NCBI GenBank assembly: GCA_000091165.1
Contig: FP565575.1
Span: 1,920,001 to 1,952,000 of the forward strand
Length of the DNA stretch: 32,000 bases
DNA from: Candidatus Methylomirabilis oxygeniifera
Lineage (GTDB): Bacteria; Methylomirabilota; Methylomirabilia; Methylomirabilales; Methylomirabilaceae
Direction: 5' to 3'
The position numbers were made by a program, and so were the translations under genes. Positions 1 through 27,706 of the stretch are shown here, in pieces (position 1 is the stretch's first letter; each line of letters starts with the position of its first letter). A model generated the notes under the pieces. It was not told the origin of the DNA and ran no database searches. It saw only the letters and a program-made list of their open reading frames with translations.

Positions 1-503
1 TTGAGGATCTGATCTTGACCTTTGGCGAACAACCCTGAGACATACGAATCCGGCTGTGGCCTCGCCTGTCGATCCTTGATAACCTCGAAGATCTGTTGGA
101 GAATCGCAAGGCTCCCGCCGTAGACCGCCTCCGGATCGAACTGCTGTCGCGCTAACTCCTCCGGCACCTCTGAGTCCGGATGCAGGCGACGGAAAAAACA
201 GGACCGTCGACCGGTATGGCAAGCCGCCACTACCTGCTCGGCCTTGACCAGCAGGGTATCCTCATCGCAGTCGACATAGATCTCGCGCACGCGCTGAATG
301 TGGCCGGACTCCTCCCCCTTTTGCCAGATGCGCTGCCTCGATCGGCTATAAAAATGGGTAAGACCGGTCTCGACGGTCAGTCGCAGCGACTCTTCATTCA
401 TGTAGGCAAGGGTCAGGACCTGGCCGCTCTCAGCATCCTGTACAATGGCCGGGATCAGCCCCGATGCATCGAACCGAATTTGCGCACGATCGAATCGCTC
501 CAT
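1..503 (-). CDS. hisIE: bifunctional phosphoribosyl-AMP cyclohydrolase / phosphoribosyl-ATP pyrophosphatase HisIE (3' end runs off the window)
   Basis: Absent from the ORF track because it is open at the window edge. Hand translation of the minus strand from ATG at 501-503 gives [40 protein letters not shown]...[27 protein letters not shown] (HisI-like), then ...[30 protein letters not shown] (HisE-like). Lies directly downstream of hisF. Confidence 0.85.
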
Positions 504-509
504 AGCCCT

Positions 510-1349
510 TTAATCCCGCACCGGGACGCCACGGCCACGCAGGTACGCCTTCGCATCCTGGATTGCGTATTCACGGAAATGAAAGATTGAGGCAGCCAGC
601 GCAGCGTCAGCCCTCCCTTTCACCAATGCCTCATACAGATGATCCAGCGTACCAGCGCCTCCCGAAGCGATGACCGGGATCGTCACGGCATCTGCTACTG
701 CGCGAGTGAGGGCCAGATCGTAGCCATCCTTCGTCCCATCTCTGTCCATGCTGGTCAGCAGGATCTCCCCGGCCCCGAGCGCCTCCCCTTGCTTCGCCCA
801 CCCGACAGCATCAAGTCCGGTCGGGGTCCGTCCACCATGAGTGTAGACCTGCCAGCGCGGAGCGCCGGATGGGGTGTGGGGTGTGGGGTGTGGGGTGTGG
901 GGACCTGCTACCTCAACACTCGACACTTGACACTTGACACTATCACTGACCCGTTTCGCATCGATGGCGAGGACAATGCACTGGCTTCCGAACCGCATGG
1001 CGGCCTCAGTAAGCAGTTCCGGGCGCTCGACGGCCGCCGTGTTCAGCGAGACCTTGTCGGCGCCTGCGAGCAGCAGCGTTCGAATATCCTCTACCACCCG
1101 GACTCCACCACCAACGGTGAGGGGGGTAAAGGTCATCTCGGCCGTTCGACGGACCACATCAAGTAAGATGTCCCGCCGCTCATAGGAGGCGGTGATGTCG
1201 AGAAAGACCAGCTCGTCAGCTCCCTGTTGGTCATACAGCGCCGCCACCTCGGCCGGATCGCCCGCGTCGCGGAGATCTACAAACCGCGTCCCTTTCACGA
1301 CACGCCCGTCTTTCACATCCAGACATGGGATGATCCGCTTTGCCAGCAT
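510..1349 (-). CDS. hisF: imidazole glycerol phosphate synthase cyclase subunit HisF with an in-frame repeat-encoded insertion of about 27 aa
   Basis: 279-aa [51 protein letters not shown] and IASGGAG are typical HisF motifs. It is 25-30 aa longer than usual; the excess maps to the heptamer cassette at 871-941. Confidence 0.95.
871..941. repeat. composite tandem-heptamer cassette inside hisF
   Basis: Plus strand reads (GGGGTGT)x4+GGGG at 871-902, spacer acctgctacct, then CAACACT CGACACT TGACACT TGACACT at 914-941. On the coding strand it is translated as [24 protein letters not shown]. Confidence 0.9.
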
Positions 1350-1352
1350 GAT

Positions 1353-2075
1353 TTATTTTGCCGCCGCAATCGCTTCGTTCAGTGAGAATCTACCCTCGTA
1401 CAGGGCCTTCCCGACCAGGGCACCAATGACGATAGTGGGTTCAAGCGTCGCGACTCGCCTGAGATCGTCGAGTGTGGCAATCCCTCCGGACGCGATGATC
1501 GGGTGGCGGGCCGCCTGAGCCATTTGTTGCAACGCGCCCAGATTCGGTCCCGTGAGCATCCCGTCTCGCTCGATATCGGTATAGATAATCGCTGCCAGCG
1601 GAAGATCGGCCGCTCGTATCGCCAGATCGGCCGCGAGCAGCTCGGTGGCCTCCACCCAACCCCGTACCGCAACCTTCCCGTTTTTCGCATCGATTCCGAG
1701 CAGTACGCGACCGGGATAGCGATGGGCAGCCTCCCTCAAGAATCCCTCATCCTGGATGGCAGCCGTCCCAATGACGGCTCGCTCGATGCCGGAGGCAAAC
1801 GCCTGCTCCAAGGCAGCTAGATTCCGTAATCCGCCACCAAGCTGCACAGGAATCTTGATCGATCGGGCCACTTGGGCAACAACGGAAAGCTGCTGCGGCG
1901 TTCCGGCAAAGGCGCCGTCAAGATCGACCACGTGCAGAATCGGCGCCCCTTCATCCTCCCACCTCTTGGCCATAGCGACCGGGTCGGCGGAATAGGCGGT
2001 TTGACGTAGGGGATCGCCTTGCGACAACCGAACGACGTGGCCCCCTTTCAGGTCGATCGCGGGAATGATCAGCAT
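1353..2075 (-). CDS. hisA: 1-(5-phosphoribosyl)-5-[(5-phosphoribosylamino)methylideneamino]imidazole-4-carboxamide isomerase HisA
   Basis: 240-aa [36 protein letters not shown] and IASGGI motifs. Its stop lies 3 nt from the hisF start. Confidence 0.95.
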
Positions 2076-2248
2076 CTACGTGAGAGAGGCGAAGTTTTTC
2101 AGCAGTTGCAGGCCTAAGGCTTGACTCTTCTCGGGGTGAAACCGGCAGGCGAAGAGGTTATCACGCCACAGTACTGAGGTGAATCGAAGGCCATACTCGG
2201 TCGTCGCGGCGATCACGCTTTTATCCTCCGGTTGTACATAGTAGGAGT
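1985..2248. repeat. left copy of a 264-bp direct repeat (hisA 5' end plus hisH 3' end)
   Basis: Hand alignment to 3162-3425 at a constant offset of 1177 nt. No indels and 16 mismatches, 11 of them in the last ~80 nt. Confidence 0.95.
2076..2248 (-). pseudogene. hisH C-terminal fragment (duplicate of the last ~56 codons of hisH)
   Basis: The C-terminal 56 aa of ORF 2076..2312 are [56 protein letters not shown]. Full-length HisH has ...[56 protein letters not shown]. The N-terminal catalytic part is absent. Confidence 0.9.
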
Positions 2249-2413
2249 AGAGCACACAGGCACTTGTATCGCGGGTTTCTCTATCGGGCTGAGTATAGAC
2301 AAGGTGGTGCATAGTGTCAATGAGGGGAAATCAAGGAGCTTTGGGGAAGGCAGACCCAGGGACACCAATCCGTTTCTTGGGATAGCGCTTGGTTTTGTTG
2401 AAGTACTTCTTTG

Positions 2414-2441
2414 TTGAGACGTCATATAGTATTCTTAGTAA
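2414..2441 (+). promoter_or_regulatory. candidate sigma70-type promoter for the DUF4189-like gene
   Basis: TTGAGA (2414-2419), 16-nt spacer, TAGTAA (2436-2441), in the AT-rich stretch upstream of the ATG at 2541. An AAGGAA Shine-Dalgarno lies 8 nt before the ATG. Motif match only. Confidence 0.3.
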
Positions 2442-2540
2442 GAGTTTAACGGTGTGTCGTATGTGGTACCATTTGTCCTTATCAATTACGGCAGTATTGC
2501 ATTTTCAGGCTCCACTCTCTTTTAATAAGGAACTCTACAG

Positions 2541-3056
2541 ATGACAAAGCTAATGAAAATATCCTTTCTCCTTTTTATTAGTATGGTCGTGTCGTCCATG
2601 TTCACCGCAACTGTTGCCTTGGCCGATTGTTATCGGGACTGTATGGAAGCGTCTGGCTGTTGGAGTACAGAACCAGGAGTTAACGTAAGTTATTGCAGCG
2701 ACACCCAAGCCCGATGTTCATCAGATTGCCTCAATGAAGGCCCAAGCGGCCGTGGTAAAATCTACGGCGCCATCGCCTACAGCAAAGAAAACGGAGCGTA
2801 TGGCTACTCTCACGGCTGGACGAACCAGAAAAAAGCCGAAGCAGTCGCGCTTAAAAACTGCTCGGAACACGGATCGGGATGCGAATCGGTGGTGTGGTTT
2901 CATAATAGCTGCGGTGCAGTGGCAAGCGATGGCAGACGTGTGACCTGGGGGCAAGCTGATTCTGCGCAGGTCGCCATGAAGCAAGCCCTCGACAAATGCA
3001 ATAAAAGCTTTCTTAGGGGAAAGTGCAAAAACGTGGCGTCCCACTGTTCAGGATAG
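2541..3056 (+). CDS. secreted cysteine-rich protein, DUF4189-like
   Basis: 171-aa ORF with a signal-peptide-like N-terminus (MTKLMKISFLLFISMVVSSMFTATVALA/DC) and 14 Cys. The core YGAIAYSKENGAYGYSHGW..AEAVALKNC..GCESVVWFHNSCGAVA...WGQA....A...ALDKC matches my recollection of the DUF4189 pattern. Visibly lower GC than the flanks. One of only two plus-strand coding features called in this window; the other is the remnant at 30262-30429. Confidence 0.8.
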   Translation: MTKLMKISFLLFISMVVSSMFTATVALADCYRDCMEASGCWSTEPGVNVSYCSDTQARCSSDCLNEGPSGRGKIYGAIAYSKENGAYGYSHGWTNQKKAEAVALKNCSEHGSGCESVVWFHNSCGAVASDGRRVTWGQADSAQVAMKQALDKCNKSFLRGKCKNVASHCSG

Positions 3057-3091
3057 ACCGCGCCATTGTCTAAAAAGTCTCGGCCGCCCCA

Positions 3092-3160
3092 TCACAGACA
3101 TGCCATTAATTCATCGGGGCCTATTGTGCCATCACCGTTCACATCGAGTATATCGAGGGA
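3092..3160 (-). pseudogene. possible C-terminal remnant of an EF-hand / calcium-binding protein
   Basis: The minus-strand frame reads SLDILDVNGDGTIGPDELMACL-stop. DVNGDGTIGPDE fits the 12-residue EF-hand loop (D1, N3, D5, G6, I8, E12). There is no usable start and the frame runs into the repeat junction. Confidence 0.3.
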
Positions 3161-3161
3161 G

Positions 3162-3252
3162 CGGCGGAATAGGCGGTTTGACGTAGGGGATCGCCTTGCG
3201 ACAACCGAACGACGTGGCCCCCTTTCAGGTCGATTGCGGGAATGATCAGCCT
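3162..3252 (-). pseudogene. hisA 5' fragment (first ~30 codons) with destroyed start codon
   Basis: Matches hisA 1985-2075 with 2 mismatches. One of them changes ATG to AGG (plus strand cat at 2073-2075 versus cct at 3250-3252). The frame hits a stop just past the repeat boundary. Confidence 0.85.
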
Positions 3253-3425
3253 CTACGTGAGAGAGGCGAAGTTTTTCAGCAGTTGCAGGCCCAAGGCTTG
3301 ACTCTTCTCGGGGTGAAACTGGCAGGCGAAGAGGTTATCACGCCACAGCACTGAGGTGAACCGGATACCGTATTCGGTCGTGGCAGCGATCACGTTGTCA
3401 TCCTCCGGTTGTACATAGTAGGAGT
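3162..3425. repeat. right copy of the 264-bp direct repeat
   Basis: See 1985-2248. This copy contains the genuine 3' end of full-length hisH plus a dead hisA 5' fragment. Confidence 0.95.
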
Positions 3426-3885
3426 GGACGAAATAGAAAAATGCCCCATCGGGGATGCCCTTGAAGATCGGAGTCTGCTGTTCGATCCGGACGCGGTTCC
3501 ACCCCATGTGGGGGATCTTGAGTGGGGGCGATTCGCGAATCGCCTCTACCGCGGCATTCTTGAATCGGACGACCCGCCCCTTGATGATGTTGAGACCCGC
3601 ATGATGTCCGAACTCCTCGCTCTCACTGAACAGGAAGTGCAGTCCCAGGCAGATACCGAGAACCGGCGTACCCGCCTCAATCGCCCGAAGTAGCGGCTCG
3701 ATAAATCCACCATCCCGAAGCTTACTGATCCCATCGGCAAATGCACCGACCCCGGGTAGGACAATGCCGGATGCGTCACGGAGCGTTCGCGGATCCTCCG
3801 CGACCTTGGCGTCGGCCCCAACGCGCTCGAATCCCTTTTGGACGCTTCGGAGGTTCGCAATACCGGAATCGATAATGGCAATCAC
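3253..3885 (-). CDS. hisH: imidazole glycerol phosphate synthase glutamine amidotransferase subunit HisH
   Basis: 210-aa ORF. MIAIIDSGIANLRSV, PVLGICLGLHFLF (nucleophile Cys) and FHPEKS motifs. GTG start overlaps the hisB stop (GTGA). Confidence 0.95.
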   Translation of the reverse strand: MIAIIDSGIANLRSVQKGFERVGADAKVAEDPRTLRDASGIVLPGVGAFADGISKLRDGGFIEPLLRAIEAGTPVLGICLGLHFLFSESEEFGHHAGLNIIKGRVVRFKNAAVEAIRESPPLKIPHMGWNRVRIEQQTPIFKGIPDGAFFYFVHSYYVQPEDDNVIAATTEYGIRFTSVLWRDNLFACQFHPEKSQALGLQLLKNFASLT

Positions 3886-4469
3886 AAACTGCCTTTCGTC
3901 GAGGGGACGTCGGCGATCCGTAGATCAATCGCCGTCGCCTGATCGAGACACTTGGCCAATGCCTTAAAGATCGCTTCGACGCAATGGTGCAGATTCTCAC
4001 CATACAGGACCGCCACATGGAGGTCTACCTTCATGTTCATAACCAAAGCGCGCATGAACTCCTTGACGAGCGTGACATCGAAATCACCGATCCGACCCTG
4101 GAGTTGGGACGCCTCATAGACCAGATAGGGACGACCGCTGATGTCGAGCGCCACGCGCGCCAGCGCCTCATCCAGCGGGACAAGCGCCGAGGCGAACCGC
4201 CGGATACCCCGCTTGTCCCCCATGGCCTGAGCGAACGCGTCGCCGAGCGCGATCCCGACATCCTCCACGGTATGGTGCAGATCGATCTGAAGGTCGCCTC
4301 GCGCCTCAATGCTGAGGTCGAAGAGACCGTGTGTCGCCAATTGGGCCAGCATGTGATCAAGGAAAGGGACCTGAGTCTGAAGCGTGTGTCGGCCCGTTCC
4401 GTCCAGGTTGAGCTCCACCGTAACATCGGTTTCTGAGGTCTTCCTGCATACCCTGGCTGTTCGGCTCAT
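3882..4469 (-). CDS. hisB: imidazoleglycerol-phosphate dehydratase HisB
   Basis: ORF 3882..4514. I prefer the ATG at 4467-4469 (MSRTARVCRKTSETDVTVELNLDG...), which is preceded by GGAGAG. Motifs DLHHTVEDVGIALG and NLHHCVEAIFKA. Confidence 0.9.
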   Translation of the reverse strand: MSRTARVCRKTSETDVTVELNLDGTGRHTLQTQVPFLDHMLAQLATHGLFDLSIEARGDLQIDLHHTVEDVGIALGDAFAQAMGDKRGIRRFASALVPLDEALARVALDISGRPYLVYEASQLQGRIGDFDVTLVKEFMRALVMNMKVDLHVAVLYGENLHHCVEAIFKALAKCLDQATAIDLRIADVPSTKGSL

Positions 4470-4519
4470 GATCCGCTCTCCGTCCTCTGTGTCATCTCGC
4501 GTTGCACATCGCACCTCAA

Positions 4520-4566
4520 GAACAGGGTATAGGGCCTAGAGTTGAGGGTAAAGAACAGAACCCTGT
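4520..4566. repeat. weak heptamer-phased array with closing inverted repeat (hisC-hisB intergenic)
   Basis: acagggt atagggc ctagagt tgagggt (4522-4549) keep AGGG/AGAG in a 7-nt phase. acagggt (4522-4528) is exactly complementary to accctgt (4560-4566). Confidence 0.35.
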
Positions 4567-4588
4567 CTGATCCCTGCATCCTCAGCTT

Positions 4589-5668
4589 TCAATCCTGCTT
4601 CAGGGCCTTCGTCAATGCCTCCACAAACCGATTGTTCTCTGCTTTCGTCCCCACAGTGACCCGCAGGCAGTCTTGCAGGCCCGGCACCGACCCAATATTT
4701 CGCACCAAGACGCCCTGCTGAAGCAGCGCTCCGAACAGATCGCCTCCAGAATGCGTCGTCCGAAAGAGGATGAAGTTCGCTGCCGACGGAAAGGCTTCGA
4801 CGCCTGGTAACGCGACCAGACAGCCCATCACCCGCTCCCGCTCCCGGACCACCTCACCAATGTTGGCATCGATCCACTCATGGTGGTTGAGCAGTACGAC
4901 AGCGGCCGTCTGGGAGAAACTGTTCAGGTTGAACGGGAGGCGGACCTTCTCTATCTCGGCCGCGAGCGCAGGATGGGCAACGAGGTAGCCGATTCGCAGA
5001 CCGGCCAGTCCGATCTTGGAGAGGGAGTGGAGGATAACCAGCCGCTCCTGATCGATCAGGTGCGGCAGCATGGTCCGTCCGGCGTATGGCCCATAGGCTT
5101 CGTCCACCACGACCAATCCGGGCGCAACGGCAAGAATCTTACAGATCTCCGCCTCGGAGAAGACCCCGCCGGTTGGGTTGTTTGGTGTCGCGAGAAAGAT
5201 GATCCTGGGGCGCAATCGCTCGATGGTCTCGATCAGTGTCGGCAGGTCTGGCTCAAAGCGAGGGCCGAGCGGTACCCCTTCGAAGCGCAGTCCGTGAGCC
5301 CTCGCGATCAGTTCATACATCGAAAACGTCGGAACCGGGGCGAGCGCCGTAGCGCCAGGTCCGGAAGTCGCCAGCAGCAACAGTTGGATCAGCTCATCGG
5401 ACCCATTGCCGAGGACAAGCGATTCCGGCGACACCCGGAGCTGTGCGGCCAGGACTGATCGGAGCCGATCCGCTTTCGCATCCGGGTAGCGATGGACGTC
5501 TACCTGATCCAACGCACAGCGAAGTTCCCGGCGAAGCTCCTCGGGGAGCAGAAACGGGCTTTCATTGGCATCGAGCTTGATCAGACCTGGTCGTGGCTCC
5601 TCGGCTCGATACGCTGTCAGGCTCAGCACTTCAGGCTTGATCAAATCGAGCAGGCGCGGCCTCTTCAT
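4589..5668 (-). CDS. hisC: histidinol-phosphate aminotransferase HisC
   Basis: 359-aa ORF. KLDANESP, TPNNPTG and LSKIGLAGLRIGY (PLP-lysine context) are typical of class-II aminotransferase HisC. Confidence 0.93.
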   Translation of the reverse strand: MKRPRLLDLIKPEVLSLTAYRAEEPRPGLIKLDANESPFLLPEELRRELRCALDQVDVHRYPDAKADRLRSVLAAQLRVSPESLVLGNGSDELIQLLLLATSGPGATALAPVPTFSMYELIARAHGLRFEGVPLGPRFEPDLPTLIETIERLRPRIIFLATPNNPTGGVFSEAEICKILAVAPGLVVVDEAYGPYAGRTMLPHLIDQERLVILHSLSKIGLAGLRIGYLVAHPALAAEIEKVRLPFNLNSFSQTAAVVLLNHHEWIDANIGEVVRERERVMGCLVALPGVEAFPSAANFILFRTTHSGGDLFGALLQQGVLVRNIGSVPGLQDCLRVTVGTKAENNRFVEALTKALKQD

Positions 5669-5669
5669 G

Positions 5670-6959
5670 TCAGCTCAGCCTCCGGATCGAGGCCGCCCTC
5701 GCGTGGGCCTCAAGTCCCTCCAGACGGGCCAGCTCAACCAATGTCGGCTCCAGTGCCTCCAGCTTCTGTCGGCTGAAGGCGATCAGTGAACTCTGACGTT
5801 GGAAATCGGCCACGGAGAGGGGCGACGCAAAACGCGCCGTCCCTCCGGTCGGCAGGATATGATTCGGTCCGGCCAGGTAATCACCCACTACCTCCGGACT
5901 GGCACCTCCCATGAAAATAGCGCCCGCGTGTCTGATTTGCGGCAATAGTCCCCAGGGGTCCTTCACCAATAGTTCCAGGTGCTCAGGCGCGATCTCATTG
6001 CAGAGGGTGGCGGCCTCGCCCAGTCCCTTCACGACGACTGCCGCGCCGAACTGCTCCAAGGAGGCCTCTGCAATCTGTCGCCTGGGCAACAGCGCGACTT
6101 GGCGTGTGACCTCGTTCACCACCTCTCCGGCAAGCCGCTGGGATGGAGTGAGCAGCATCGCGCTGGAGAGCGGATCATGTTCAGCCTGCGAAAGCAGGTC
6201 GGCGGCAACCCAGGCGGCGTCGGCCTCCTCGTCGGCGATGATCAACAACTCCGTCGGGCCGGCGATCATATCGATCCCGACCTGTCCGAAGACCAGCCGC
6301 TTGGCCGCCGCAACATACACGTTTCCCGGACCCACGATCTTATCCACCCTCGGAATCGATGCAGTCCCATAGGCCATGGCCGCCACTGCCTGAACGCCGC
6401 CCGCCTTATAGATCGTATGAACCCCGCACAGATCGGCAGCAACCAGCACCGCGTCCGCGACCTTGCCGTCGCGACGCGGCGGCGTACACATCACGACCTC
6501 CGCGACGCCGGCAATCGCAGCCGGAATCGCATTCATGAGCACCGTAGACGGGTAGGCCGCCGTGCCACCAGGAACATAGATCCCTACCCGGTCCAGCGGA
6601 CGGACAACCATCCCGACGATCGCCCCGTCTTCCTCCGAGAACCAGGAGGGGCGGAGCTGTCGGAGATGAAAGGCCCTGACCCGCGATACCGCCGTCTTGA
6701 TCGCCTCAAGGGACGCGGGCGGCAAGGCGACATATGCGGCCTCAACCTCCCCTGACTTCACCTGCACCGACGCGGCATCGAGACGGACACCGTCGAACCG
6801 CTCCGTCTGCTCGAAAAGAGCGCTATCACCGCCCGTCCGTATCGCGTCAAGGATACCGCGAACGGTCCGCTCAACTTCGGCAGGCAGCGCGCCTTGTCGG
6901 GACCTGAGCTGCGCGACAAACAGCCGCCACTCTTGCGATCCGGCCTGAAGCAGCTTCAT
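5670..6959 (-). CDS. hisD: histidinol dehydrogenase HisD
   Basis: 429-aa ORF with IDMIAGPTELLIIAD, SQAEHD, APEHLEL and GDYLAGPNHILPT motifs. 4-nt overlap with the hisG stop. Confidence 0.95.
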   Translation of the reverse strand: MKLLQAGSQEWRLFVAQLRSRQGALPAEVERTVRGILDAIRTGGDSALFEQTERFDGVRLDAASVQVKSGEVEAAYVALPPASLEAIKTAVSRVRAFHLRQLRPSWFSEEDGAIVGMVVRPLDRVGIYVPGGTAAYPSTVLMNAIPAAIAGVAEVVMCTPPRRDGKVADAVLVAADLCGVHTIYKAGGVQAVAAMAYGTASIPRVDKIVGPGNVYVAAAKRLVFGQVGIDMIAGPTELLIIADEEADAAWVAADLLSQAEHDPLSSAMLLTPSQRLAGEVVNEVTRQVALLPRRQIAEASLEQFGAAVVVKGLGEAATLCNEIAPEHLELLVKDPWGLLPQIRHAGAIFMGGASPEVVGDYLAGPNHILPTGGTARFASPLSVADFQRQSSLIAFSRQKLEALEPTLVELARLEGLEAHARAASIRRLS

Positions 6960-7639
6960 ACGCGCGCCCTCACCGATTGCGCCTCAACCTGCTTCCGCAT
7001 CTCCTCGATCAGATCCTGGACCCGGCGGTACTTTGTCTTGAGGCTCGCCCGATTGACGATGAGCCGCGCCGTAGCCTTGGCGATCTCCTCAACCTCCACC
7101 AACCCGTTCTCCTTCAAGGTCTGTCCGGTCTCCACGAGGTCAACGATTCGCTCGGCCAGCCCCACAAGGGGCGCAAGCTCAAGAGACCCATTTAATTTAA
7201 TGATCTCTGCCTGGATCCCTTTGCGGCTGAAGAACGCTTCCGCGAGATGTGGATATTTGGTAGCCAGTCTCAGATGCGACCAGGAATGGGGGTCATCCTG
7301 CTTACGGAGTTCGGCGGGCTCTGCGACAACAAGTCGACAGGCGCCGAATCTGAGATCCAGCGGCTCATAGACATCACGGCACTGCTCGAGGAGCTGGTCC
7401 TTCCCCACGATCCCCATATCGGCGGCACCGTGCTCAACGTAGGTCGGAATGTCGGCAGGTTTCAATGTGAGGAACTGCAGTTGTCGAACCGGGTCCTCGC
7501 AGATCAGGCGGCGTGAATCAGCAAAACCTCGGAGACATGTGATGCCCATTCCCTCAAAGAGCGCCATGACAGGGGATAACAGACGGCCCTTGGGCAGCGC
7601 GATGGCAATGACGTCGTTATTTGAAGTTCCAGGTGTCAT
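6956..7639 (-). CDS. hisG: ATP phosphoribosyltransferase HisG (short form)
   Basis: ORF 6956..7708. I prefer the ATG at 7637-7639 (MTPGTSNNDVIAIALPKGRL...), because the 23 upstream codons are encoded by intergenic heptamer repeats. At 227 aa the length fits the short, HisZ-dependent form. Confidence 0.9.
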   Translation of the reverse strand: MTPGTSNNDVIAIALPKGRLLSPVMALFEGMGITCLRGFADSRRLICEDPVRQLQFLTLKPADIPTYVEHGAADMGIVGKDQLLEQCRDVYEPLDLRFGACRLVVAEPAELRKQDDPHSWSHLRLATKYPHLAEAFFSRKGIQAEIIKLNGSLELAPLVGLAERIVDLVETGQTLKENGLVEVEEIAKATARLIVNRASLKTKYRRVQDLIEEMRKQVEAQSVRARV

Positions 7640-7640
7640 A

Positions 7641-7708
7641 TTTCGCGTTTCGAATTTCGGGTCACTAGAAGAGTCCCACCTCGACACCCAACACTGCACA
7701 CTCGACAC
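7641..7708. repeat. two adjacent tandem-heptamer arrays in the murA-hisG spacer
   Basis: tttcgcg tttcgaa tttcggg (7641-7661), spacer, then tcgacac ccaacac tgcacac tcgacac (7681-7708). Confidence 0.85.
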
Positions 7709-7718
7709 TCTCTGTTAT

Positions 7719-8975
7719 TTATTCTGCGACTCGCTCGATGTCGGCGCCAAGGCCCTGAAGCTTTGTTTCAATCGACTCATATCCCCGGTCGAGATGATAG
7801 ACTCGCGAGACGGTGGTGGTCCCCTGAGCGGCCAGTCCTGCGAGAACCAGCGATGCGCTCGCCCGCAGATCGGTCGCCATCACCGGTGCGCCCGATAGCA
7901 TGGGAATGCCATGGACAAACGCCGTAGTGCCGATCACCTTGATATCCGCACCCATCCTCAGCAGCTCATTCACGTGCATGAATCGGTTCTCAAATACGGT
8001 CTCGGTGATGACGCTGCTCCCCTGGGCAATAGACATCAGCGCCATGAACTGCGCCTGCATATCGGTGGCAAATCCTGGATAGGGATGGGTTCTGACATTG
8101 ACCCCTCGCAATTGTCCGTCTCCCAAGACCCGAATACTGCGGTCCGTCTCCTCTATCAGTACGCCGGTCTCCCGCAGTTTCTCTGTAATCGCCTCCAGGT
8201 GGCCCGGCAGGCAATGAGTGACGGTGACGTCTCCGCCGGTGATCGCGGCCGCAACCATAAAGGTCCCCGTCTCGATCCTGTCCGGAATCACCTCGTGCGC
8301 TGCTCCGTGCAGATGCGAGACGCCCTCGATAGTGATCGTCGGCGTTCCCGCGCCCTCGATGCTCGCGCCCATACCATTCAGCAGAGCGGCCAGGTCGACG
8401 ACCTCGGGCTCGCACGCAGCGTTCTCCAGCACCGTCACCCCATCGGCCAGCGTGGCGGCCATCATTACATTCTCAGTGCCGGTGACGGTCTGGCCATCGA
8501 ATGTAATCCTGGCGCCCTTCAAACGCGACGCCTTCGCTTCAACGTATCCTGCGTCAAGGCTGACCGTTGCACCCATCTTCTCAAGCGCCGCCAGATGCAG
8601 ATTGATCGGCCGTGACCCGATGGCGCACCCTCCCGGCAAAGAGACCCGTGCTCGTCCGAATCGGGCCACCAGGGGGCCGAGAACCAGTACCGATGCCCGC
8701 ATCGTCTTGACCAGTTGATAGGGCGCCTCACACTGACCGATGCCATCGGCACGAAGGGATAGAGTCTCTCGATCGCGTCGTTCGACGCTCACACCTAAAT
8801 GGCTGAGCAGACCGATAGTCGTCTTCACGTCGCCCAATTGCGGAACACGATGAAGCTGGATCGACTCTCCTGTAAGCAACGAGGCCACCATCTCTGGCAG
8901 GGCCGCGTTCTTTGCGCCACCAGCCTCCACCTGTCCTCTGAGGGGGACCCCGCCTCTGATAATCAGCCTATCCAT
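7719..8975 (-). CDS. murA: UDP-N-acetylglucosamine 1-carboxyvinyltransferase MurA
   Basis: ORF 7719..8999. I prefer the ATG at 8973-8975 ([27 protein letters not shown]...), giving 418 aa. The catalytic-Cys context [12 protein letters not shown] is present. Overlaps the prmC stop by 8 nt. Confidence 0.95.
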
Positions 8976-9975
8976 GCGCCCTCTCGCGCCTTGGCGCACA
9001 CACGACCCGGTCGCGACCGGCCATGTCCTGCCTCACCTCCGCCGGTCCGAAGCCTTCTGTCTTCCGGATCAGTTCCATCACCGCGGATGCCTGACCGTCA
9101 CCGACCTCGAAGACCAGCCAACCGCCGTCGCGAAGATAGGCAGGAGCCGCTTCGATGATTCGCCGATAATAGCGCAGGCCGTCCGGGCCGCCATCGATGG
9201 CCTCGACAGGCTCGTAGGCGGTGATCTCAGGAGCTAAGACGCGGCAGGCGGCTGAGGGAATATACGGCGGATTTGATACGATCAGGTCACACCCTCCCCC
9301 GGCGTCGATCGTCCGAAACGGCTCAAGAAGATCGCCTTGGACGCAGCGAACCCTGTTCGTCAGTCCAAGCGTGTCTATGTTCCGTCCGGCGATTCGACAG
9401 GCACCCGGCGAACGATCGATGGCATAAATGAGCGCACGAGGCAGTTCGACCGCCAGCGCCAAGGCAACGGCGCCGCAGCCGGTGCCGAGATCCACAATAA
9501 CCAGTTGTGAGTGTCGAGTGTTGAGTGTTGAGTGTTGGGTCTCTGAGCCTTGACACTTGACACTGATCTTGTCCAGGGCGGTCTCGACAAGCGTTTCGGT
9601 GTCCGGCCTTGGAATCAGGACATCCGGGCTCACTGCCAAGAGAAGCGACCAGAACTCTTTTACCCCAAGGATATAGGCAACCGGCTCTCTGGCCTCGCGC
9701 CGGGACACCATCGATTCAAGGAGGCCGGATCTGTCTAAGGGAATTGGTTGCTCCGGATCCAGGATAAACTGCCACCTCGGAATGCCCGACGCCGCCTCCA
9801 TGAGGTACGCTGCGTCAAGCGGCGCGCTCTGCACGCCGCTCTCCACCAGCCGCTCCACCACCTGACGGTACGTGAAAATCTGAGGGGTGTGGGGTGTGGG
9901 GTGTGGGGTGTAATGGAGTTGTACTTCGCGCTTCGTGCTTCGCGCTTCTTCTGCAAGCGTAGACGTCATCCTCAC
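8968..9975 (-). CDS. prmC: peptide chain release factor N5-glutamine methyltransferase PrmC, with two repeat-encoded in-frame segments
   Basis: 335-aa ORF with [13 protein letters not shown] (SAM site), the NPPY motif ([10 protein letters not shown]) and RPDTETLVE. The start is GTG at 9975 (GTGA overlap with the prfA stop) or ATG at 9969. Confidence 0.92.
9508..9564. repeat. imperfect inverted heptamer cassette inside prmC
   Basis: gtga gtgtcga gtgttga gtgttga gtgttgg g (9508-9539), spacer tctctgagcc, ttgacac ttgacac t (9550-9564). Translated as [20 protein letters not shown] between the conserved LVETAL and VDLGTG blocks. Confidence 0.9.
9884..9951. repeat. two adjacent tandem-heptamer arrays at the prmC 5' end
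   Basis: (GGGGTGT)x4 at 9884-9911, spacer aatggagttgta, then cttcgcg cttcgtg cttcgcg cttcttc at 9924-9951. Translated as [23 protein letters not shown]. Confidence 0.9.
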
Positions 9976-11060
9976 ACCAACGCCTTCAATCGCGCGGCCT
10001 GATCGCTGGCTGCGAGCGCGCCGATCAGCTCCTCGATCTCCCCCTCCAGGATCCGCGGGAGGCTGTGGAGCGTGAGCCCGATTCGATGGTCGGTGACCCG
10101 CCCCTGTGGGAAATTGTAGGTGCGTATCCGTTCACTCCGATCTCCTGTGCCGACCTGCTGACGGCGCGCCTGCGAAATCTCTGCCGCCTGCTGTGCCGTG
10201 GCAGCCTCAAGCAGGCGGGCTCGCAATACCTTCATCGCCTTGGCTCGATTCTTATGCTGCGACTTCTCATCCTGACAGGACACCACCATTCCGGTCGGCA
10301 GATGGGTAATTCGCACGGCTGAATCGGTGGTGTTGACGGACTGCCCTCCAGGCCCTGTTGACCGAAAGACATCGATCCGAAGATCCTTGGGGTCAATCTG
10401 TATCTCCACATCCTCCGCCTCCGGCAGAACGGCAACTGTGACGGTAGAGGTGTGAATCCGACCACTTGACTCGGTAACAGGGACCCGCTGCACCCGGTGG
10501 ACGCCGCTCTCGAATTTCAGGCGGCTGTACGCGCCGCGCCCCTCAATGCTGAGGATCGCCTCCTTCACTCCGCCAACCCCCGTCTGACTTGAAGACAGCA
10601 TCTCCACCTTCCAGCCTCGTAGTTCCGCGTAACGGCCGTACATCCTGACCAGCTCCGCAGCGAACAGTGCGGCCTCGTCGCCGCCGGCCCCAGCCCGTAC
10701 CTCCAAGATGATACTTTTCTCATCGGCCGGATCGCGAGGAAGCAACAACAGCGTAAGTTCCTCCTCAAGTTTCTCCCGCTTGACGGCCAGCTCCTTCAGC
10801 TCCGCCTCTGCCAACTCGCGCACATCGTCTTCGGTGCCGTCGTGCAGTAAGGCTTTCGTCTCTTCCAGGTCCTGCAGGAGCTTACGATACTGCTGATAGG
10901 CCTCCACCACCGGTTCCAGTTCCGCATGCGCCTTGGCCAACCGCTGAAAGCGAGCCTGATCGGTGATAATAGCCGGATCACCCATCTGCAACAGGACCTC
11001 GGTAGATCGCTGTTCGATGGCGTCCAGGCGCTCACGCAACTGTAACATCGATGTTACCAT
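9972..11060 (-). CDS. prfA: peptide chain release factor 1
   Basis: 362-aa ORF with a PxT-type tripeptide context ([14 protein letters not shown]), the GGQ motif ([20 protein letters not shown]) and [13 protein letters not shown]. Confidence 0.96.
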
Positions 11061-11081
11061 TCTATGCGGACAGCCTCCTGA

Positions 11082-11360
11082 TCAGGGGGCGACCACTTCC
11101 CCTGGTGCTGCCGTAGCGAGTTCCGCGGAGGCGGCCTCTTCGACCACCTTGGCCGTTTTCGGCTTTTTGGAATATTTCCGTCGGAACCGATCGACCCGCC
11201 CCTCGGTGTCGATCAGCTTCTGGCGACCGGTAAAGAGCGGGTGACACTTGGAGCAGATCTCTACCCGGAGAGCATCCGCGGTGGACCGGGTATGGATCAC
11301 CTCGCCGCACGCGCATGTGATCGTTGTCGATTGATAGTTAGGATGAACACCTGACTTCAT
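11082..11360 (-). CDS. rpmE: 50S ribosomal protein L31 (Zn-ribbon type, with C-terminal extension)
   Basis: [63 protein letters not shown], followed by a ~25-aa Lys/Ala/Glu-rich tail. GGGAGGGA Shine-Dalgarno upstream. Confidence 0.93.
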
Positions 11361-11411
11361 AATCGTCCCTCCCTGAAAATAGCCAATTTTTCAGTAAGTT
11401 AAACACGTTAC

Positions 11412-11441
11412 ATTATACGTCCAAACGCTGAGCCTGCTCAA
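11412..11441 (-). promoter_or_regulatory. candidate sigma70 promoter for rpmE-prfA
   Basis: Minus strand reads TTGAGC (11436-11441), 18-nt spacer, perfect TATAAT (11412-11417), about 50 nt upstream of the rpmE ATG. Confidence 0.5.
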
Positions 11442-11453
11442 TAGAAAAGCAGC

Positions 11454-11538
11454 ATTCAGCCATCAGCCGTCAGCGGTCAGCAAAAGTAGGAAACCGATAG
11501 CTCCCAGCCGATGGCCGATTGCCATAAGCTGAACGCTG
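11454..11538. repeat. tandem heptamer array (NNTCAGC)x4 with a short inverted partner
   Basis: attcagc catcagc cgtcagc ggtcagc (11454-11481). gctgaacgctg (11528-11538) is the reverse-complement type (cagcNNtcagc). Confidence 0.8.
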
Positions 11539-11546
11539 TGCTATGG

Positions 11547-11577
11547 CAAAAAATACAGCCCGTCGAAGGACGGGCTG
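11547..11577 (-). terminator. intrinsic terminator downstream of rho
   Basis: Minus strand reads CAGCCCGTC-cttc-GACGGGCTG (perfect 9-bp GC-rich stem) followed by TATTTTTTG. Begins 29 nt after the rho stop. Confidence 0.8.
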
Positions 11578-11605
11578 ATGAATCGCATGAAGAGAGGACA
11601 ACCAC

Positions 11606-12853
11606 TTATGAATTCATGGCTCTCATGAAATCCTCGTTCGATCTGGCCTGCCTCAACTTCTCAAGCAGGAGTTCCATCGCCTCCACCACACCCATAGTCT
11701 GGAGGACCTTACGGAGAATCCACATCCGGTTGAGTTCCTCCTGCGTCAGCAGGAGTTCCTCTTTCCGCGTGCCTGACCTGAAGATATCGATAGCAGGAAA
11801 GACCCGCTTATCCACCAAGCGTCGATCCAGGACAAGCTCGCAGTTGCCGGTCCCCTTGAACTCTTCAAAGATGACATCGTCCATCCGGCTGCCGGTGTCG
11901 ATAAGGGCTGTGGCCATGATCGTCAGGCTGCCGCCCTCTTCAATATTCCGCGCCGCCCCAAAAAATCGTTTGGGGCGCTGCAGCGCGTTGCTGTCCACGC
12001 CGCCGGAGAGCACCTTGCCGCTCGGCGGGACAATGGTATTGTAGGCCCGTCCCAATCGGGTGATAGAATCCAGCAAGATCACCACATCCCGCTTGTGTTC
12101 CACCAACCGCTTAGCCTTCTCGATCACCATCTCGGCCACCTGGACGTGGCGCGTAGCCGGTTCATCAAAGGTGGAACTCACGACCTCCGCCTTGACAGAG
12201 CGCTGGAAGTCAGTCACTTCTTCAGGCCGCTCGTCGATCAGCAGTACGATCAGAATCACCTCAGGATGATTCTTGGTGATGCTGTTGGCAATCTTCTGCA
12301 GAAGAATGGTCTTACCGGTCCTCGGCGGTGCCACAATCAGCCCGCGCTGCCCCTTACCGATCGGCGTAAGGAGGTCCATGACTCGCATGTTCAGCTCATC
12401 CTGCGCGGTCTCCAGCCTGATCCGCTGGTTCGGAAAAAGAGGGGTCAGGTTATCAAAAAGGATCTTGTCCTTGATCAGCTCCGGGTTTTCGAAGTTGACC
12501 GCCTCGACCTTGAGGAGGGCAAAGTAGCGCTCGCCTTCTTTTGGAGGTCTCACCTGGCCCGACACGGTGTCGCCGGTCCGGAGATCAAAGCGCCGAATCT
12601 GCGACGGCGATACGTAAATATCGTCCGGCCCAGGCAGGTAATTGTAGTCCGGCGCCCGAAGGAAGCCAAACCCATCGGGTAGAACCTCGAGCACACCCTC
12701 CGCGAAGATCAACCCGCTTTTCTCGGTTTGCGCCTCAAGGATCTTGAAGATGAGCTCTTGCTTGCGGAGGCCGCTGGCACCCACCACGTTCAGGGTCCTG
12801 GCAATGGCACTCAACTCAGAGATGGTCTTCTCTTTCAGTTCCACGATATTCAT
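11606..12853 (-). CDS. rho: transcription termination factor Rho
   Basis: ORF 11606..12940. I prefer the ATG at 12851-12853 ([19 protein letters not shown]...), giving 415 aa. Walker A (APPRTGKT), RNA-binding FGFLR and [11 protein letters not shown] motifs. An N-terminal extension to 12940 cannot be excluded. Confidence 0.95.
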
Positions 12854-16732: not shown

Positions 16733-16788
16733 GGGTTAGCGTCCTTGGAGAATAACGATCAACGGTCAGTACTAAAAGCAGGTGTCTA

Positions 16789-16838
16789 GGCTGAAGGCTG
16801 AAGAATCCTCACAACCTTCAGCCTATTTACCTTCAGCC
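16789..16838. repeat. inverted heptamer repeat (GGCTGAA / TTCAGCC type) in the dnaJ-polA spacer
   Basis: ggctgaaggctgaag (16789-16803), 11-nt spacer, ccttcagcc (16815-16823), tatttac, ccttcagcc (16830-16838). GGCTGAAG/CTTCAGCC can form a hairpin. Confidence 0.85.
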
Positions 16839-19866: not shown

Positions 19867-21060
19867 TCAGAGGAGCTGGACAATCAGTTCATTAGCTACG
19901 AGGAGGCCCCGCTCTGCGATCTGCACCCGCCCGTCTTTCAGGCAAAGGAACCCATCATCCAGAAGACGGGTGACCCGGTCGGACGCCGCGAGCTCTTCAA
20001 CGCCAAGTACATCCTTGAATGTCTGCACGTCCAGTCCGCTCCGAAGACGAAGCCCCAACATCAGCCGCTCTGACCGTAGCATCTCGGCGGACAGCTCTTC
20101 GCCACAGGCCACGGCTGTCTCACGCTCGGCAATGGCGGATACGTAGCGTGCCGGCAGCAACTCATTATAAAACCGACGTCCGGCAACGAATGAGTGCGCT
20201 CCAGCCCCAATACCGACGTATTCCTGATGTTGCCAGTAGACCAGATTGTGCCGACAACGAAAGCCCGGACGCGCAAAGTTTGAGATCTCGTAATGCTCAA
20301 AGCCGTCGTTACACAGCCGATCCACAGCCATCTGGTACATCATTGTCTCTGTTTCCTCGTCAGGTAGTCCAATCTCGCCTTTACGATGCTCCTGATAGAG
20401 AGGCGTCCCCTCTTCGAGGATCAGCCCGTAGGCAGAGACATGTTCAGGCTCCACACCAATGACCCAGTCAAGAGTTTCCGACCAATCGTCCATGTTCTGA
20501 CCGGGTAGACCGAACATCACGTCCAGGTTGATGTCGCCAAAACCGGCCTCACGCGCCATCCGGTAGGCCCGTTCAGCCTCGTGGGCAGTATGAGCGCGGC
20601 CGATCCGCTGAAGGAGTCGATCCTGAACAGCCTGAACGCCTATACTCAGACGGGTCACCCCGCCCTCTCGCAACGTACGAAGCTTTGGAAGGTCGACCGT
20701 CCCCGGGTTAGCTTCAAGACTGACCTCTGCACCGACTTCAAAGGTGAAGGCCGCCCGGCACTGGTCGAGGATGCCGATGAGTTGCGACGCGTGGAGTATT
20801 GAGGGCGTCCCGCCGCCGAAGAAGACAGAGCAGACCGGCCGGTGTCGAATGACGTCTGAGGAGGCGCGGTGCGCAATCTCTTGCGCCAGCGCCTCCAGAT
20901 ACTGCTCTATTTGAACATCATCGAATCGGTAGCTGTTAAAGTCACAGTATTGACAGCGCGACAGACAATAGGGGATATGGATGTATAGGCCAAAAGATGT
21001 TGAGTGTTGAGTGTTGAGTGTTGAGTCAACGGAGAGGCCGGCACTTGACACTGAGTTCAT
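19867..21060 (-). CDS. hemW: radical SAM heme chaperone HemW / HemN-like oxygen-independent coproporphyrinogen oxidase family protein
   Basis: ORF 19867..21114. I prefer the ATG at 21058-21060, which overlaps the lepB stop (ATGA). The CxxxCxxC radical-SAM motif is present (IPYCLSRCQYCDF). The first ~20 residues ([22 protein letters not shown]) are repeat-encoded. Confidence 0.9.
   Translation of the reverse strand: MNSVSSAGLSVDSTLNTQHSTSFGLYIHIPYCLSRCQYCDFNSYRFDDVQIEQYLEALAQEIAHRASSDVIRHRPVCSVFFGGGTPSILHASQLIGILDQCRAAFTFEVGAEVSLEANPGTVDLPKLRTLREGGVTRLSIGVQAVQDRLLQRIGRAHTAHEAERAYRMAREAGFGDINLDVMFGLPGQNMDDWSETLDWVIGVEPEHVSAYGLILEEGTPLYQEHRKGEIGLPDEETETMMYQMAVDRLCNDGFEHYEISNFARPGFRCRHNLVYWQHQEYVGIGAGAHSFVAGRRFYNELLPARYVSAIAERETAVACGEELSAEMLRSERLMLGLRLRSGLDVQTFKDVLGVEELAASDRVTRLLDDGFLCLKDGRVQIAERGLLVANELIVQLL
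20999..21052. repeat. imperfect inverted heptamer cassette at the hemW 5' end
   Basis: (GTTGAGT)x4 at 20999-21026, spacer caacggagaggccggc, acttgacact at 21043-21052. Confidence 0.9.
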
Positions 21061-21691
21061 CGCACCAACATTCCAATCCGCTCCCAGCGTGGCCTGAAGC
21101 GCTCGTGATCCCACGACCAGTAGATGATGAAGGCTTTCCCCCTGATCTTCTTCATGTCAAGAAGACCCCAGAACCGGCTATCCATGCTGTAGTCCCGGTT
21201 GTCGCCCATCATAAAGAGTTGACCCGGCGCAACAACGATCGGACCGAAACTGTCCCGAAGCGAGCCCGGATCCTCGAGGGTGGCAGGGTCCAGGTGAATT
21301 GCGTACGGCTCAGTCAGCGGCTTGTCGTTGATGTAGAGCTGTTTTTCCCGAATCTCTAACTTATCACCCGGCAGAGCAACAACCCGCTTGATAAAGTCTC
21401 TCCCCTCATCCTGGGGATACTTGAACACAATGATGTCACCGTGCTGCGGGTCCGTAAACCAATACAGGAATTTATTCACCAGAATGTGATCGCCGACCTG
21501 CAGCGTCTGAAGCATCGACCCGGAGGGGATTTTGAAGGCCTGAATCACAAAGCTTCTGATCACCAGCGCCAAGATAATGGCAATGATGATGGCCTCGGCG
21601 TACTGGCGAAAGACCGACTTCTCCGACTTTACGCCTGACTGTGAGGCTCGCTCCTGGCCTTCCTTTATCGTCTCATCCGACGTCGGTCGCG

Positions 21692-23500: not shown

Positions 23501-23510
23501 GTCGATAAGC

Positions 23511-23538
23511 CTTCAGCCGTCAGCCTTCAGCGTACAGC
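23511..23538. repeat. tandem heptamer array (NNTCAGC type) upstream of lepA
   Basis: cttcagc cgtcagc cttcagc gtacagc, starting 11 nt upstream of the lepA ATG. Confidence 0.8.
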
Positions 23539-26999: not shown

Positions 27000-27260
27000 T
27001 TACACCAGATCGCGCTTCTTGGCCTCGAACTCTTCCTTCTCAATCTCGCCGCGGGCATATCGCTTCTTGAGGATCTCTACGGCCGACTCCTCTGACGGTC
27101 GGACAGACCGGATCCCCGAACCGGCCTGCCAGAGCCAGCGAACCGTCAGCACCAACACCAGCAAGATGAGGAGCCAGAAGGCCGTTATCATCACCATCCA
27201 GAGGATGCCCCATCCCCAGAACCAGGACTCATGGCCCATTTCCTCCCACCGCATCATCAT
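27000..27260 (-). CDS. SHOCT-domain small membrane protein
   Basis: 86 aa: one hydrophobic segment, then AVEILKKRYARGEIEKEEFEAKKRDL (SHOCT pattern). ATGA overlap with the upstream ORF. Confidence 0.75.
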   Translation of the reverse strand: MMMRWEEMGHESWFWGWGILWMVMITAFWLLILLVLVLTVRWLWQAGSGIRSVRPSEESAVEILKKRYARGEIEKEEFEAKKRDLV

Positions 27261-27706
27261 CGCGGCGCACTCGGTTCCACTCGCCGCTCCAACCCCCTCA
27301 GGCGGATAGCCTCTCCCAGGGCGATAAGGTGATCCCCGGCCTCAATCTTTTCATCTGTGGAGGGATTAAAGATCATGCCACCAGACGCTCGCTTGATCGC
27401 TACCACAATTACCCCCGGCTCCTGAGACAGCCCGGAGTCGCCCAGCGTAACCCCCTCGCCTGGAGACCCCGGCGGCACCACAATCTCTTCAAGCTGCAGT
27501 TCCAGGCTTTGATAGTGCGTGGCCAGCTCAATGATATCTACGACGGCGGGGCGCAGCGCCGCCTGAGCCATGCGGTGTCCCCCCATTGCGTAGGGCGAGA
27601 TGACCTTATCGGCCCCAGCATGGCCAAGAGTCCTTTCGCTCCGCTCCGTCTCAGCCCTGGCCACGACAAAGAGGGAGGGGTTAAGATCCTTGGCCGTAAG
27701 GATCAC
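27257..27706 (-). CDS. C-terminal part of a frameshift-split RCK/TrkA K+ channel gene (second half of TrkA_N plus TrkA_C)
   Basis: Begins (GTG) ILTAKDLNPSLFVVARA, which in intact homologues continues directly from ...DADNV(F/Y/L)x. The C-terminal TrkA_C-like block is LEEIVVPPGSPGEGVTLGD...VVAIKR...NPSTDEKIEAGDHLIALG. Confidence 0.7.
   Translation of the reverse strand: MILTAKDLNPSLFVVARAETERSERTLGHAGADKVISPYAMGGHRMAQAALRPAVVDIIELATHYQSLELQLEEIVVPPGSPGEGVTLGDSGLSQEPGVIVVAIKRASGGMIFNPSTDEKIEAGDHLIALGEAIRLRGLERRVEPSAPR

Follow-up and report, generated by a model that had tools for sequence, protein, structure and literature searches.

Why does an essential enzyme carry a run of low-complexity residues in frame, and what keeps it there? 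The question is raised by hisF, the gene for the cyclase subunit of imidazole glycerol phosphate synthase, in a 32,000-nucleotide (nt) stretch of the genome of the methane-oxidising bacterium Candidatus Methylomirabilis oxyfera (oxygeniifera), hereafter the window; in all, about 50 kb of this 2.75-Mb genome was covered. Within the gene lies an element made of two arrays of 7-nt repeats (heptamers) and a spacer (870-941), which is read in frame as codons 137-160. Our analysis makes it probable, though far from certain, that this insert is a self-perpetuating hairpin microsatellite of the short tandemly repeated repetitive (STRR) type, belonging to a Methylomirabilis family, which the enzyme tolerates in the form of a disordered loop without any catalytic role.

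The hisF insert and its host enzyme

The hisF gene (510-1349, minus strand) was identified from the list of open reading frames (ORFs), Pfam, sequence identity and synteny. Its product of 279 aa matches PF00977 (His_biosynth) over residues 5-261 with an E-value of 2e-81 and 273.1 bits (cut-off 23.6), is 100% identical to M. oxyfera protein P0001 and is encoded in a complete hisGDCBHAF-IE operon, the gene order being syntenic in all relatives examined. Residues R5, D11, E46, K99 and D130 are invariant columns among 57 aligned relatives (alignment A1); we take Asp11 and Asp130 to be catalytic and R5, E46 and K99 to be ammonia-gate residues (Thermotoga maritima numbering). An AlphaFold model built on the same 57 relatives has a mean predicted local distance difference test score (pLDDT) of 84 and a predicted template modelling score (pTM) of 0.84. 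Compared with solved HisF structures the modelled barrel reaches target template modelling (TM) scores of 0.91-0.96, and the Foldseek matches 4evz, 1ka9_F and 1thf, at 0.91-0.92, are in accordance with a superposable (beta/alpha)8 barrel. The operon, the invariant residues and the modelled barrel lend support to what a preliminary description of this DNA had proposed, namely that HisF tolerates an in-frame low-complexity insert in a surface loop.

The same sequence, 100% identical, is found in two further assemblies, a European Nucleotide Archive (ENA) contig and the Logan assembly of run SRR023516, over spans of 11,349 nt and 2,014 nt, and since both carry it the insert is not an assembly artefact. 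That the locus reflects a repeat mis-assembly, or a hisF in decay whose function another copy covers, draws some room from the small part of the genome that was examined; with three identical assemblies, a complete and syntenic operon, invariant catalytic residues and an architecture repeated in dozens of relatives, we find it scarcely credible.

Tandem arrays were called with Tandem Repeats Finder (TRF), and the extent of the element is further supported by codon mapping, the lack of a counterpart in solved HisF and pLDDT. Arm 1 (870-902, plus strand) is called as (TGGGGTG)x4.7 with 100% matches; it reads (CCCCACA)n on the sense strand and covers codons 150-160. Arm 2 (912-941, plus strand) consists of the units CTCAACA, CTCGACA, CTTGACA and CTTGACA followed by CT, is called as (CTCGACA)x4.3 with 91% matches, and gives (AGTGTCA)n in sense over codons 137-146. 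The 9 nt between them (903-911, plus strand, ACCTGCTAC) form the spacer or hairpin loop and encode codons 147-149. Reading the heptamers in three frames gives the peptides of the insert, such as HTPHPTP from CACACCC and VKCQVSS from GTCAAGT. ORF translation and codon mapping give 33 residues between the AIDAKRV and VYTHGGR blocks, exactly as first described. Arm 1 also holds a G-quadruplex motif on the antisense strand: only two canonical motifs of this kind occur on the plus strand (871-895 and 9884-9908), both in (GGGGTGT)n arms and both on the template strand of their host gene.

In the protein, residues 136-164 have no counterpart, every solved HisF chain aligning as residues 1-135 plus 165-278. 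The excess over insert-free close relatives (254 aa) amounts to 25 aa or 75 nt, and the arrays with their spacer make up 72 nt. Residues 137-161 are the sole long stretch of low confidence in the AlphaFold model (pLDDT <50, no secondary structure), and the insert takes the place of the turn that joins beta-5 (strand 125-133, with Asp130 on it) to strand 166-170, the element starting seven residues past catalytic Asp130. The model therefore describes the insert as a predicted disordered loop at the tip of the beta-hairpin after strand beta-5. In HisF the turn after beta-5 belongs to the C-terminal, catalytic face of the barrel.

One frame is open through the insert in 33/33 insert-bearing hisF loci. 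If unconstrained, this would happen by chance with a probability of about 2e-16, a figure that is overstated, the loci being related and partly chosen as intact genes. Such frame conservation suggests that the element is transcribed and translated in frame as a loop of about 25 residues. A length of 7 nt is not a multiple of 3 and a perfect array of 4.7 copies should slip readily, so that gain or loss of heptamers might shift the frame and switch hisF off and on as a contingency locus. The gene serves housekeeping biosynthesis from a mid-operon position, all 33 loci are in frame, and copy numbers are identical in the three assemblies (which may derive from one culture), so that such switching is highly improbable; array lengths do vary between species.

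An intein, an intron and translational bypass were also considered and rejected for an insert of 24-25 codons that is open in frame in all these loci. Rfam gave no match anywhere in the window.

Turnover and loss of the insert among relatives

Among the best 120 HisF homologues, 118 are 253-300 aa long, the exceptions being two multi-domain proteins of 446 and 469 aa, and the length variation within HisF is confined to the insert loop. In the DNA of 17 relatives, paired heptamer arrays built from different units were found at the matching hisF codon position. The units are GGGGTGT/CTTGACA in the window and, among related loci (given by L numbers), GGGGTGC/CTCGCAC in L086, GTTCCAG/GGAACCC in L087, GTTCACA in L088, AGTTTCG/CGGAACT in L001 and L082, GGGGTTC/GAACCCC in L002 and CCGAGAG/CTCTCGG in L017 and L021. 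For 11 orthologous inserts with different units, cognate arms folded at -49.4 kcal per 100 nt compared with -35.9 kcal per 100 nt for chimeras, and the cognate partner was the best in its row for 7/11. As cognate arms outfold chimeras, complementarity has been retained while the sequence changed. Units also resemble each other more closely within a genome than across genomes: those at different sites differ by at most one mismatch in 19% of within-genome pairs, compared with 7% of between-genome pairs (permutation p < 0.0005). No amino-acid conservation was found among the insert peptides of the relatives' HisF.

The preliminary description had pointed to equally long, non-repetitive loops in close relatives as evidence that would count against its reading. 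Loops of equal length are indeed present there, but they are heptamer-derived too, and some relatives have none. What that description had left out is that the two arms are complementary, that they belong to a genome-wide family with members also in prmC, and that the site is held phylum-wide while its units turn over.

The insert is absent in L090 and L083, remnants of one arm are found in L085 and L089, and a single arm is present in L081 and L084. When hisA together with the hisF core was used for a neighbour-joining tree, the insert-free L090 groups with the window and L081 with 100% bootstrap, and the outgroup and the deep clade (L086, L087, L088) have full hisF hairpins. With full hairpins in the outgroup and deep clade and L090 nested among insert-bearing loci, the insert is ancestral to the genus and cleanly losable; as it was cleanly lost, HisF does not need it, and judged from these sequences it is dispensable for the enzyme.

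Other phyla have unrelated inserts in the loop that receives the insert here, and the short form is found in Geobacter and the majority of other taxa. Four Nitrospirota loci also have heptamer arrays, at hisF nt 400-515. HisF proteins of Nitrospirota / Thermodesulfovibrionia (L004-L071, e.g. L015, L043, L050 and L063) carry in the matching loop a conserved, non-repetitive insert of about 27 aa with the motif ...EEPWF.D..L...WAISTHGGR, to which L012, L013 and L019 add a heptamer array just before the WEV motif. In L045 (10386-10432, hisF nt 386-432) the catalytic-strand motif itself is triplicated in tandem, AIDAKRSTV AIDAKRSTV AIDAKR, for which TRF gives a 14-nt consensus unit.

An adaptive protein feature, that is, a flexible loop rich in Pro, Thr and His with a modulating effect on the active-site face or a part in some interaction, would suit a position on the catalytic face near Asp130, the widespread occurrence of inserts at this loop and the conserved peptide in Nitrospirota. 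What is conserved around the M. oxyfera insert is, however, at the level of nucleotides (the period and the arm complementarity) and not of amino acids, the segment is predicted to be disordered and it was lost in nested lineages, which leaves this explanation very improbable.

A family of paired arrays and its strand asymmetry

The hisF insert is one member of a family of small hairpin-forming elements, in each of which two arrays of a 7-nt unit stand in inverted orientation on either side of a short spacer. With arrays defined by at least 3 copies and at most 1 mismatch, periods 5-12 were compared with 30 dinucleotide-preserving shuffles, and period 7 alone was enriched (4 arrays in the window versus 0 in 30 shuffles). 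TRF gives 12 period-7 rows in the 32 kb of the window; in Methylomirabilis loci totalling 216 kb, 57 period-7 and 13 period-14 rows are found among 126. Four loci of the window are paired arrays 9-18 nt apart, namely the hisF element, 9508-9564, 9881-9948 and 20998-21056. Folded as plus-strand RNA they form long periodic helices, with z-scores of -6.4, -5.4, -6.6 and -3.6 (z-scores are given relative to dinucleotide shuffles, with RNA parameters unless DNA is named).

Two of these elements lie in prmC, the gene for a release-factor methyltransferase (8968-9975, minus strand). The member at 9508-9564, (GAGTGTT)n + (CTTGACA)n, is in frame at codons ~137-155, as supported by TRF, Pfam limits, alignment and the plus-strand fold (z = -5.4). 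By the Pfam limits it lies in the linker that connects the N-terminal and methyltransferase domains, and this linker insert is hypervariable and heptamer-derived in all eight Methylomirabilis sequences aligned (the window and seven relatives). The member at 9881-9948, (GGGGTGT)x4 + (CTTCGCG)x3.6, occupies codons 10-32 in the N-terminal extension of prmC (TRF, alignment, fold) and gives, as plus-strand RNA, an uninterrupted 33-bp helix with 19 G.U pairs. The N-terminal hairpin of prmC differs from that of L081 by exactly three heptamers (7 aa).

The remaining paired element, (TGTTGAG)x4 + CACTTGACACT, was called by TRF at the lepB/hemW-like junction (20998-21056). TRF also called a degenerate (CTCGACA)-type array at the murA/hisG junction (7680-7710), where L082, L087 and L088 have arrays at the orthologous junction; (TCAGCCN)x3.7 in the rho/rpmE spacer (11456-11481), with the unit TCAGCCN at the orthologous site of L082; between dnaJ and polA (16788-16826), (AGGCTGA)x2.3 and an inverted partner, CTTCAGCCT, which together make a near-perfect hairpin; and an (AGCCTTC/AGCCGTC) array in the spacer between lepA and a polyprenyl synthase gene (23506-23538). 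Members are mostly at gene junctions of conserved operons, and a few lie within genes, where the added residues are harmless. The conserved housekeeping operons are dense with period-7 arrays, unlike the flanking accessory DNA.

Could these elements be mobile? Non-autonomous elements of the MITE (miniature inverted-repeat transposable element), repetitive extragenic palindromic (REP) or REP doublet forming hairpin (REPIN) type, moved in trans by a hairpin-recognising enzyme, would make the hisF site a recurrent insertion hotspot. This would agree with a presence that varies among close relatives (254 versus 275-283 aa), with genome-specific unit families and with the direct repeat of 7 nt, TCGACGC, that brackets the L081 array. 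The spacers of the four paired elements in the window are, however, unrelated to each other, that of hisF included, so that copies sharing arms differ between them. This argues against transposition of whole elements and indicates array-limited conversion or a unit-specific process. Full-length shared sequence including the internal part, as in MITEs or Rickettsia palindromic elements (RPE), was accordingly not found, the arms sharing units over four unrelated spacers; in-frame copies at permissive sites of housekeeping genes, known from the same systems, were found in the hisF loop and the prmC linker. Nor is there a conserved extragenic palindrome of 20-40 nt as in REP or REPIN: none is conserved, and copies also lie within genes. 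Comparison of insert-bearing with insert-free alleles gave no consistent target-site duplication at the insert boundaries, the L081 repeat being the exception, and there are no consistent terminal inverted repeats. Period-7 arrays are absent from about 19 kb of toxin-antitoxin-rich accessory DNA flanking the window (L211 11350-20840, L213 1-9580), orthologous positions are retained across species, and the outgroup and deep branches already have the insert. Mobility is on these grounds quite improbable.

The hairpins show a strand asymmetry. In the four regions folded for strand comparison (866-945, 9504-9568, 9878-9952 and 20994-21058), all 37 G.U pairs of the helices are on the plus strand, antisense to the genes, and the mRNA-sense strand has 0; the folds of that strand equal those of shuffles or surpass them only a little (z between -0.8 and -2.7). 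In a larger set of 36 paired elements from the window and 15 related loci, elements inside ORFs favour the antisense strand (mean free-energy difference between strands, ddG, -7.1 kcal/mol; 13 antisense versus 2 sense), whereas intergenic elements favour sense (mean ddG +2.5 kcal/mol; 7 sense versus 3 antisense). ORF-internal elements differ from all others, edge and intergenic together, with a Mann-Whitney p = 0.006 in what is a small test on non-independent elements. The asymmetry may be read as selection against stable mRNA structure in translated elements, transitions leaving G.U pairs on the opposite strand. An antisense-RNA function, prompted by the one-sided G.U pairs, was down-weighted once the asymmetry was found to track coding context. 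Strand-biased deamination was rejected as the cause, the plus strand being C-rich, the opposite of what C-to-T pressure there would give.

These folds bear directly on whether the hairpins act as RNA. They could stabilise operon mRNAs, serve as processing sites, modulate translational coupling or play a role in an antisense transcript, and the hisF copy would be kept for that reason. Site and hairpin are conserved while the sequence changes, the elements prefer co-directional gene junctions, their helices are highly significant with RNA and not with DNA parameters, and 37/37 G.U pairs fall on one strand. Yet in the window the favoured strand is antisense to every gene, the asymmetry follows translated status and not a fixed strand, and L083 and L090 lost the insert without replacement. 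Nor did the scans offer an Rfam family or an evident antisense promoter; none of 12 terminator-like sites in 1-12000 coincided with an element, and the promoter scan flagged no element either. A functional RNA is therefore, in our view, unlikely.

The self-perpetuating microsatellite that we favour would be maintained as follows. Arrays would lengthen and shorten by slipped-strand mispairing in steps of 7 nt, and within genes only frame-restoring changes would survive. Arm complementarity may be kept by template switching within the hairpin (quasipalindrome correction) and by conversion, and ectopic conversion would spread units among loci of one genome. In translated regions selection would favour transitions that give A.C mismatches in the mRNA hairpin and G.U pairs on the antisense strand. 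The element would contribute nothing to catalysis and could be lost. Mutagenesis by template switching in quasipalindromes, and deletion mediated by hairpins on the lagging-strand template, belong to established replication biology (Ripley; Lovett; Trinh and Sinden). Together they offer, at the level of DNA, a way for one arm to take over a change from the other and for hairpins to be lost precisely; as a general mechanism rather than a family of elements, they account neither for the 7-nt period nor for units being shared between loci.

Several observations weigh against this account. Slippage and conversion leave the period of 7 unaccounted for, and the sharing of units among loci with differing spacers, as well as the long persistence of sites, goes beyond them. 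Folds with DNA parameters are weak or absent (hisF -12.2 kcal/mol, z = -2.1; N-terminal prmC element -3.6 kcal/mol, z = -0.55), so that maintenance based on DNA hairpins cannot now act on the M. oxyfera copies. Near-perfect palindromes or strong sense hairpins are tolerated within hisF of L002, L017 and L021, which weakens the case for selection on mRNA structure. The 5' arm of the window resembles L082 more than the closest relative L081, indicating recombination or turnover. The sample behind the frame conservation is partly biased towards intact genes and phylogenetically non-independent, and the genome was seen over about 50 kb out of 2.75 Mb. That the M. oxyfera copies function as DNA cruciforms or hairpins was also considered and faces the same weak DNA-parameter folds.

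One possibility may be that paired heptamer arrays are actively written and homogenised, by a process specific to the lineage, at fixed sites that include essential genes. The candidates would be an enzyme adding 7-nt units from a template, or else a protein or other factor with binding specificity for certain heptamers. Such a writer or binder would explain why units are shared despite unrelated spacers, why units are species-specific at one codon and why the period is exactly 7; we hold it as a tentative possibility only. If it were correct, the hairpins would mark an undescribed genome-maintenance or RNA-level system common to Methylomirabilota and Nitrospirota.

Heptanucleotide repeats are the commonest long bacterial microsatellites and are unexplained, and the setting described here is unusually informative: complementary pairs are fixed at one codon of an essential enzyme phylum-wide, and their sequence turns over in concert in each genome. 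It provides a natural experiment in how arrays are generated and homogenised, in how much junk the active-site face of a triosephosphate isomerase (TIM) barrel can bear and, through the 37-to-0 asymmetry of G.U pairs, in how selection reshapes translated hairpins. The inserts inflate and diversify housekeeping proteins of Methylomirabilota and Nitrospirota and may mislead alignment, phylogeny and gene calling.

Gene models in the window are touched as well. The longest ORFs of hisG (6956-7708), the hemW-like gene (19867-21114) and prmC begin 17-40 codons before the first Pfam position and cross arrays; their annotated N-termini are probably artefacts of stop-free read-through of the repeats. 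Two overlapping minus-strand ORFs (27257-27706 and 27703-28257) share between them one potassium-channel-like gene (Ion_trans_2 + TrkA_N + TrkA_C), the split falling in the middle of TrkA_N with profile positions 1-78 in one ORF and 80-116 in the next, which suggests a frameshift or a sequencing error. In the his operon, a 267-nt direct duplication (94% identical, 1985-2251 and 3162-3428) flanks an insertion (2252-3161), the 1.18-kb insertion between hisA and hisH containing a plus-strand DUF4189 gene (2541-3056) and leaving behind a hisH 3' fragment (2076-2312) and a hisA 5' fragment. This arrangement is present in L081 and not in L082-L090.

Relation to known repeat families

Our literature search found no paper joining Methylomirabilis with heptamer repeats. 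Several known systems are nevertheless close. Heptanucleotide repeats have been described as GGGNATC and GGGGA(C/T)T in Xanthomonas and Nostoc (PMC4692102) and as TAACTGA in Beggiatoaceae and cyanobacteria (PMC4679880), and the STRR sequences of heterocystous cyanobacteria are heptanucleotide simple sequence repeats (SSRs). Among the long SSRs of prokaryotes, no class is as abundant as the heptamers (Mrazek et al. 2007, as summarised in PMC4679880). With these the elements described here share tandem 7-nt units in about 3-10 copies that are dispersed and lineage-specific, a location mostly between co-directional genes and, in some cases, G-rich units capable of forming quadruplexes. They differ in forming complementary pairs that fold into hairpins, in lying in frame within essential genes and in holding orthologous sites phylum-wide while the unit changes. 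A metagenome scan with (GGGGTGT)x3 matched mainly low-GC, cyanobacteria-like contigs, some of them with inverted partner arrays; the M. oxyfera loci were not among the matches. Many of these contigs (L098-L100, L103, L119, L122, L136, L139, L154, L163 and L170) carry a repeated element of about 100 nt around (GGGGTGT)4, with the flanks TAGGGTTTGCTGAAAAAGTTTTTCGTGGGGGCAGG and GGGGTTTTACCCATTTTCAGGTGGTCAATTACCTAATTTTCAGGGAAAAAG.

In Geobacter metallireducens, four-unit GGACCGG elements occur in 49 copies within and between genes, together with paired sites of five MTYCTGA repeats (PMC2700814). Looped pairs are drawn for some of them, like the hairpin arms here, and they were read as regulatory RNA or binding sites, with one fixed consensus per family; neither the reading frame nor orthologous sites nor the turnover of units was analysed in that report (PMC2700814). 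The Geobacter hisF loci in our sample have no insert.

Among palindromic elements, RPE are described (Ogata et al. 2000, reviewed in PMC10969869) as selfish palindromic DNA lying in frame within unrelated housekeeping genes at fold-compatible positions, and they are in that respect the closest analogue of the elements here. They have a length of about 150 bp, a conserved sequence and a conserved peptide per family, and are not built from tandem repeats; in the elements here neither sequence nor peptide is conserved, but only the period of 7 and the complementarity of the arms. REPs, bacterial interspersed mosaic elements (BIMEs) and REPINs are likewise short hairpin-forming repeats at operon junctions, abundant and genome-specific (PMC3116915, PMC3333891). 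REPs differ in their conserved sequence of 20-40 nt, their extragenic location and their tie to a REP-associated tyrosine transposase (RAYT) gene (PMC3116915, PMC3333891), whereas the elements here lack a conserved sequence and have copies within genes, and no RAYT gene was seen in the sequence covered.

Taken together, the head-to-tail 7-nt arrays occur above chance, are dispersed and have lineage-specific units, as in heptanucleotide SSRs of the STRR type. The hisF element fits this class; what is new is that it is paired, hairpin-forming and intragenic.

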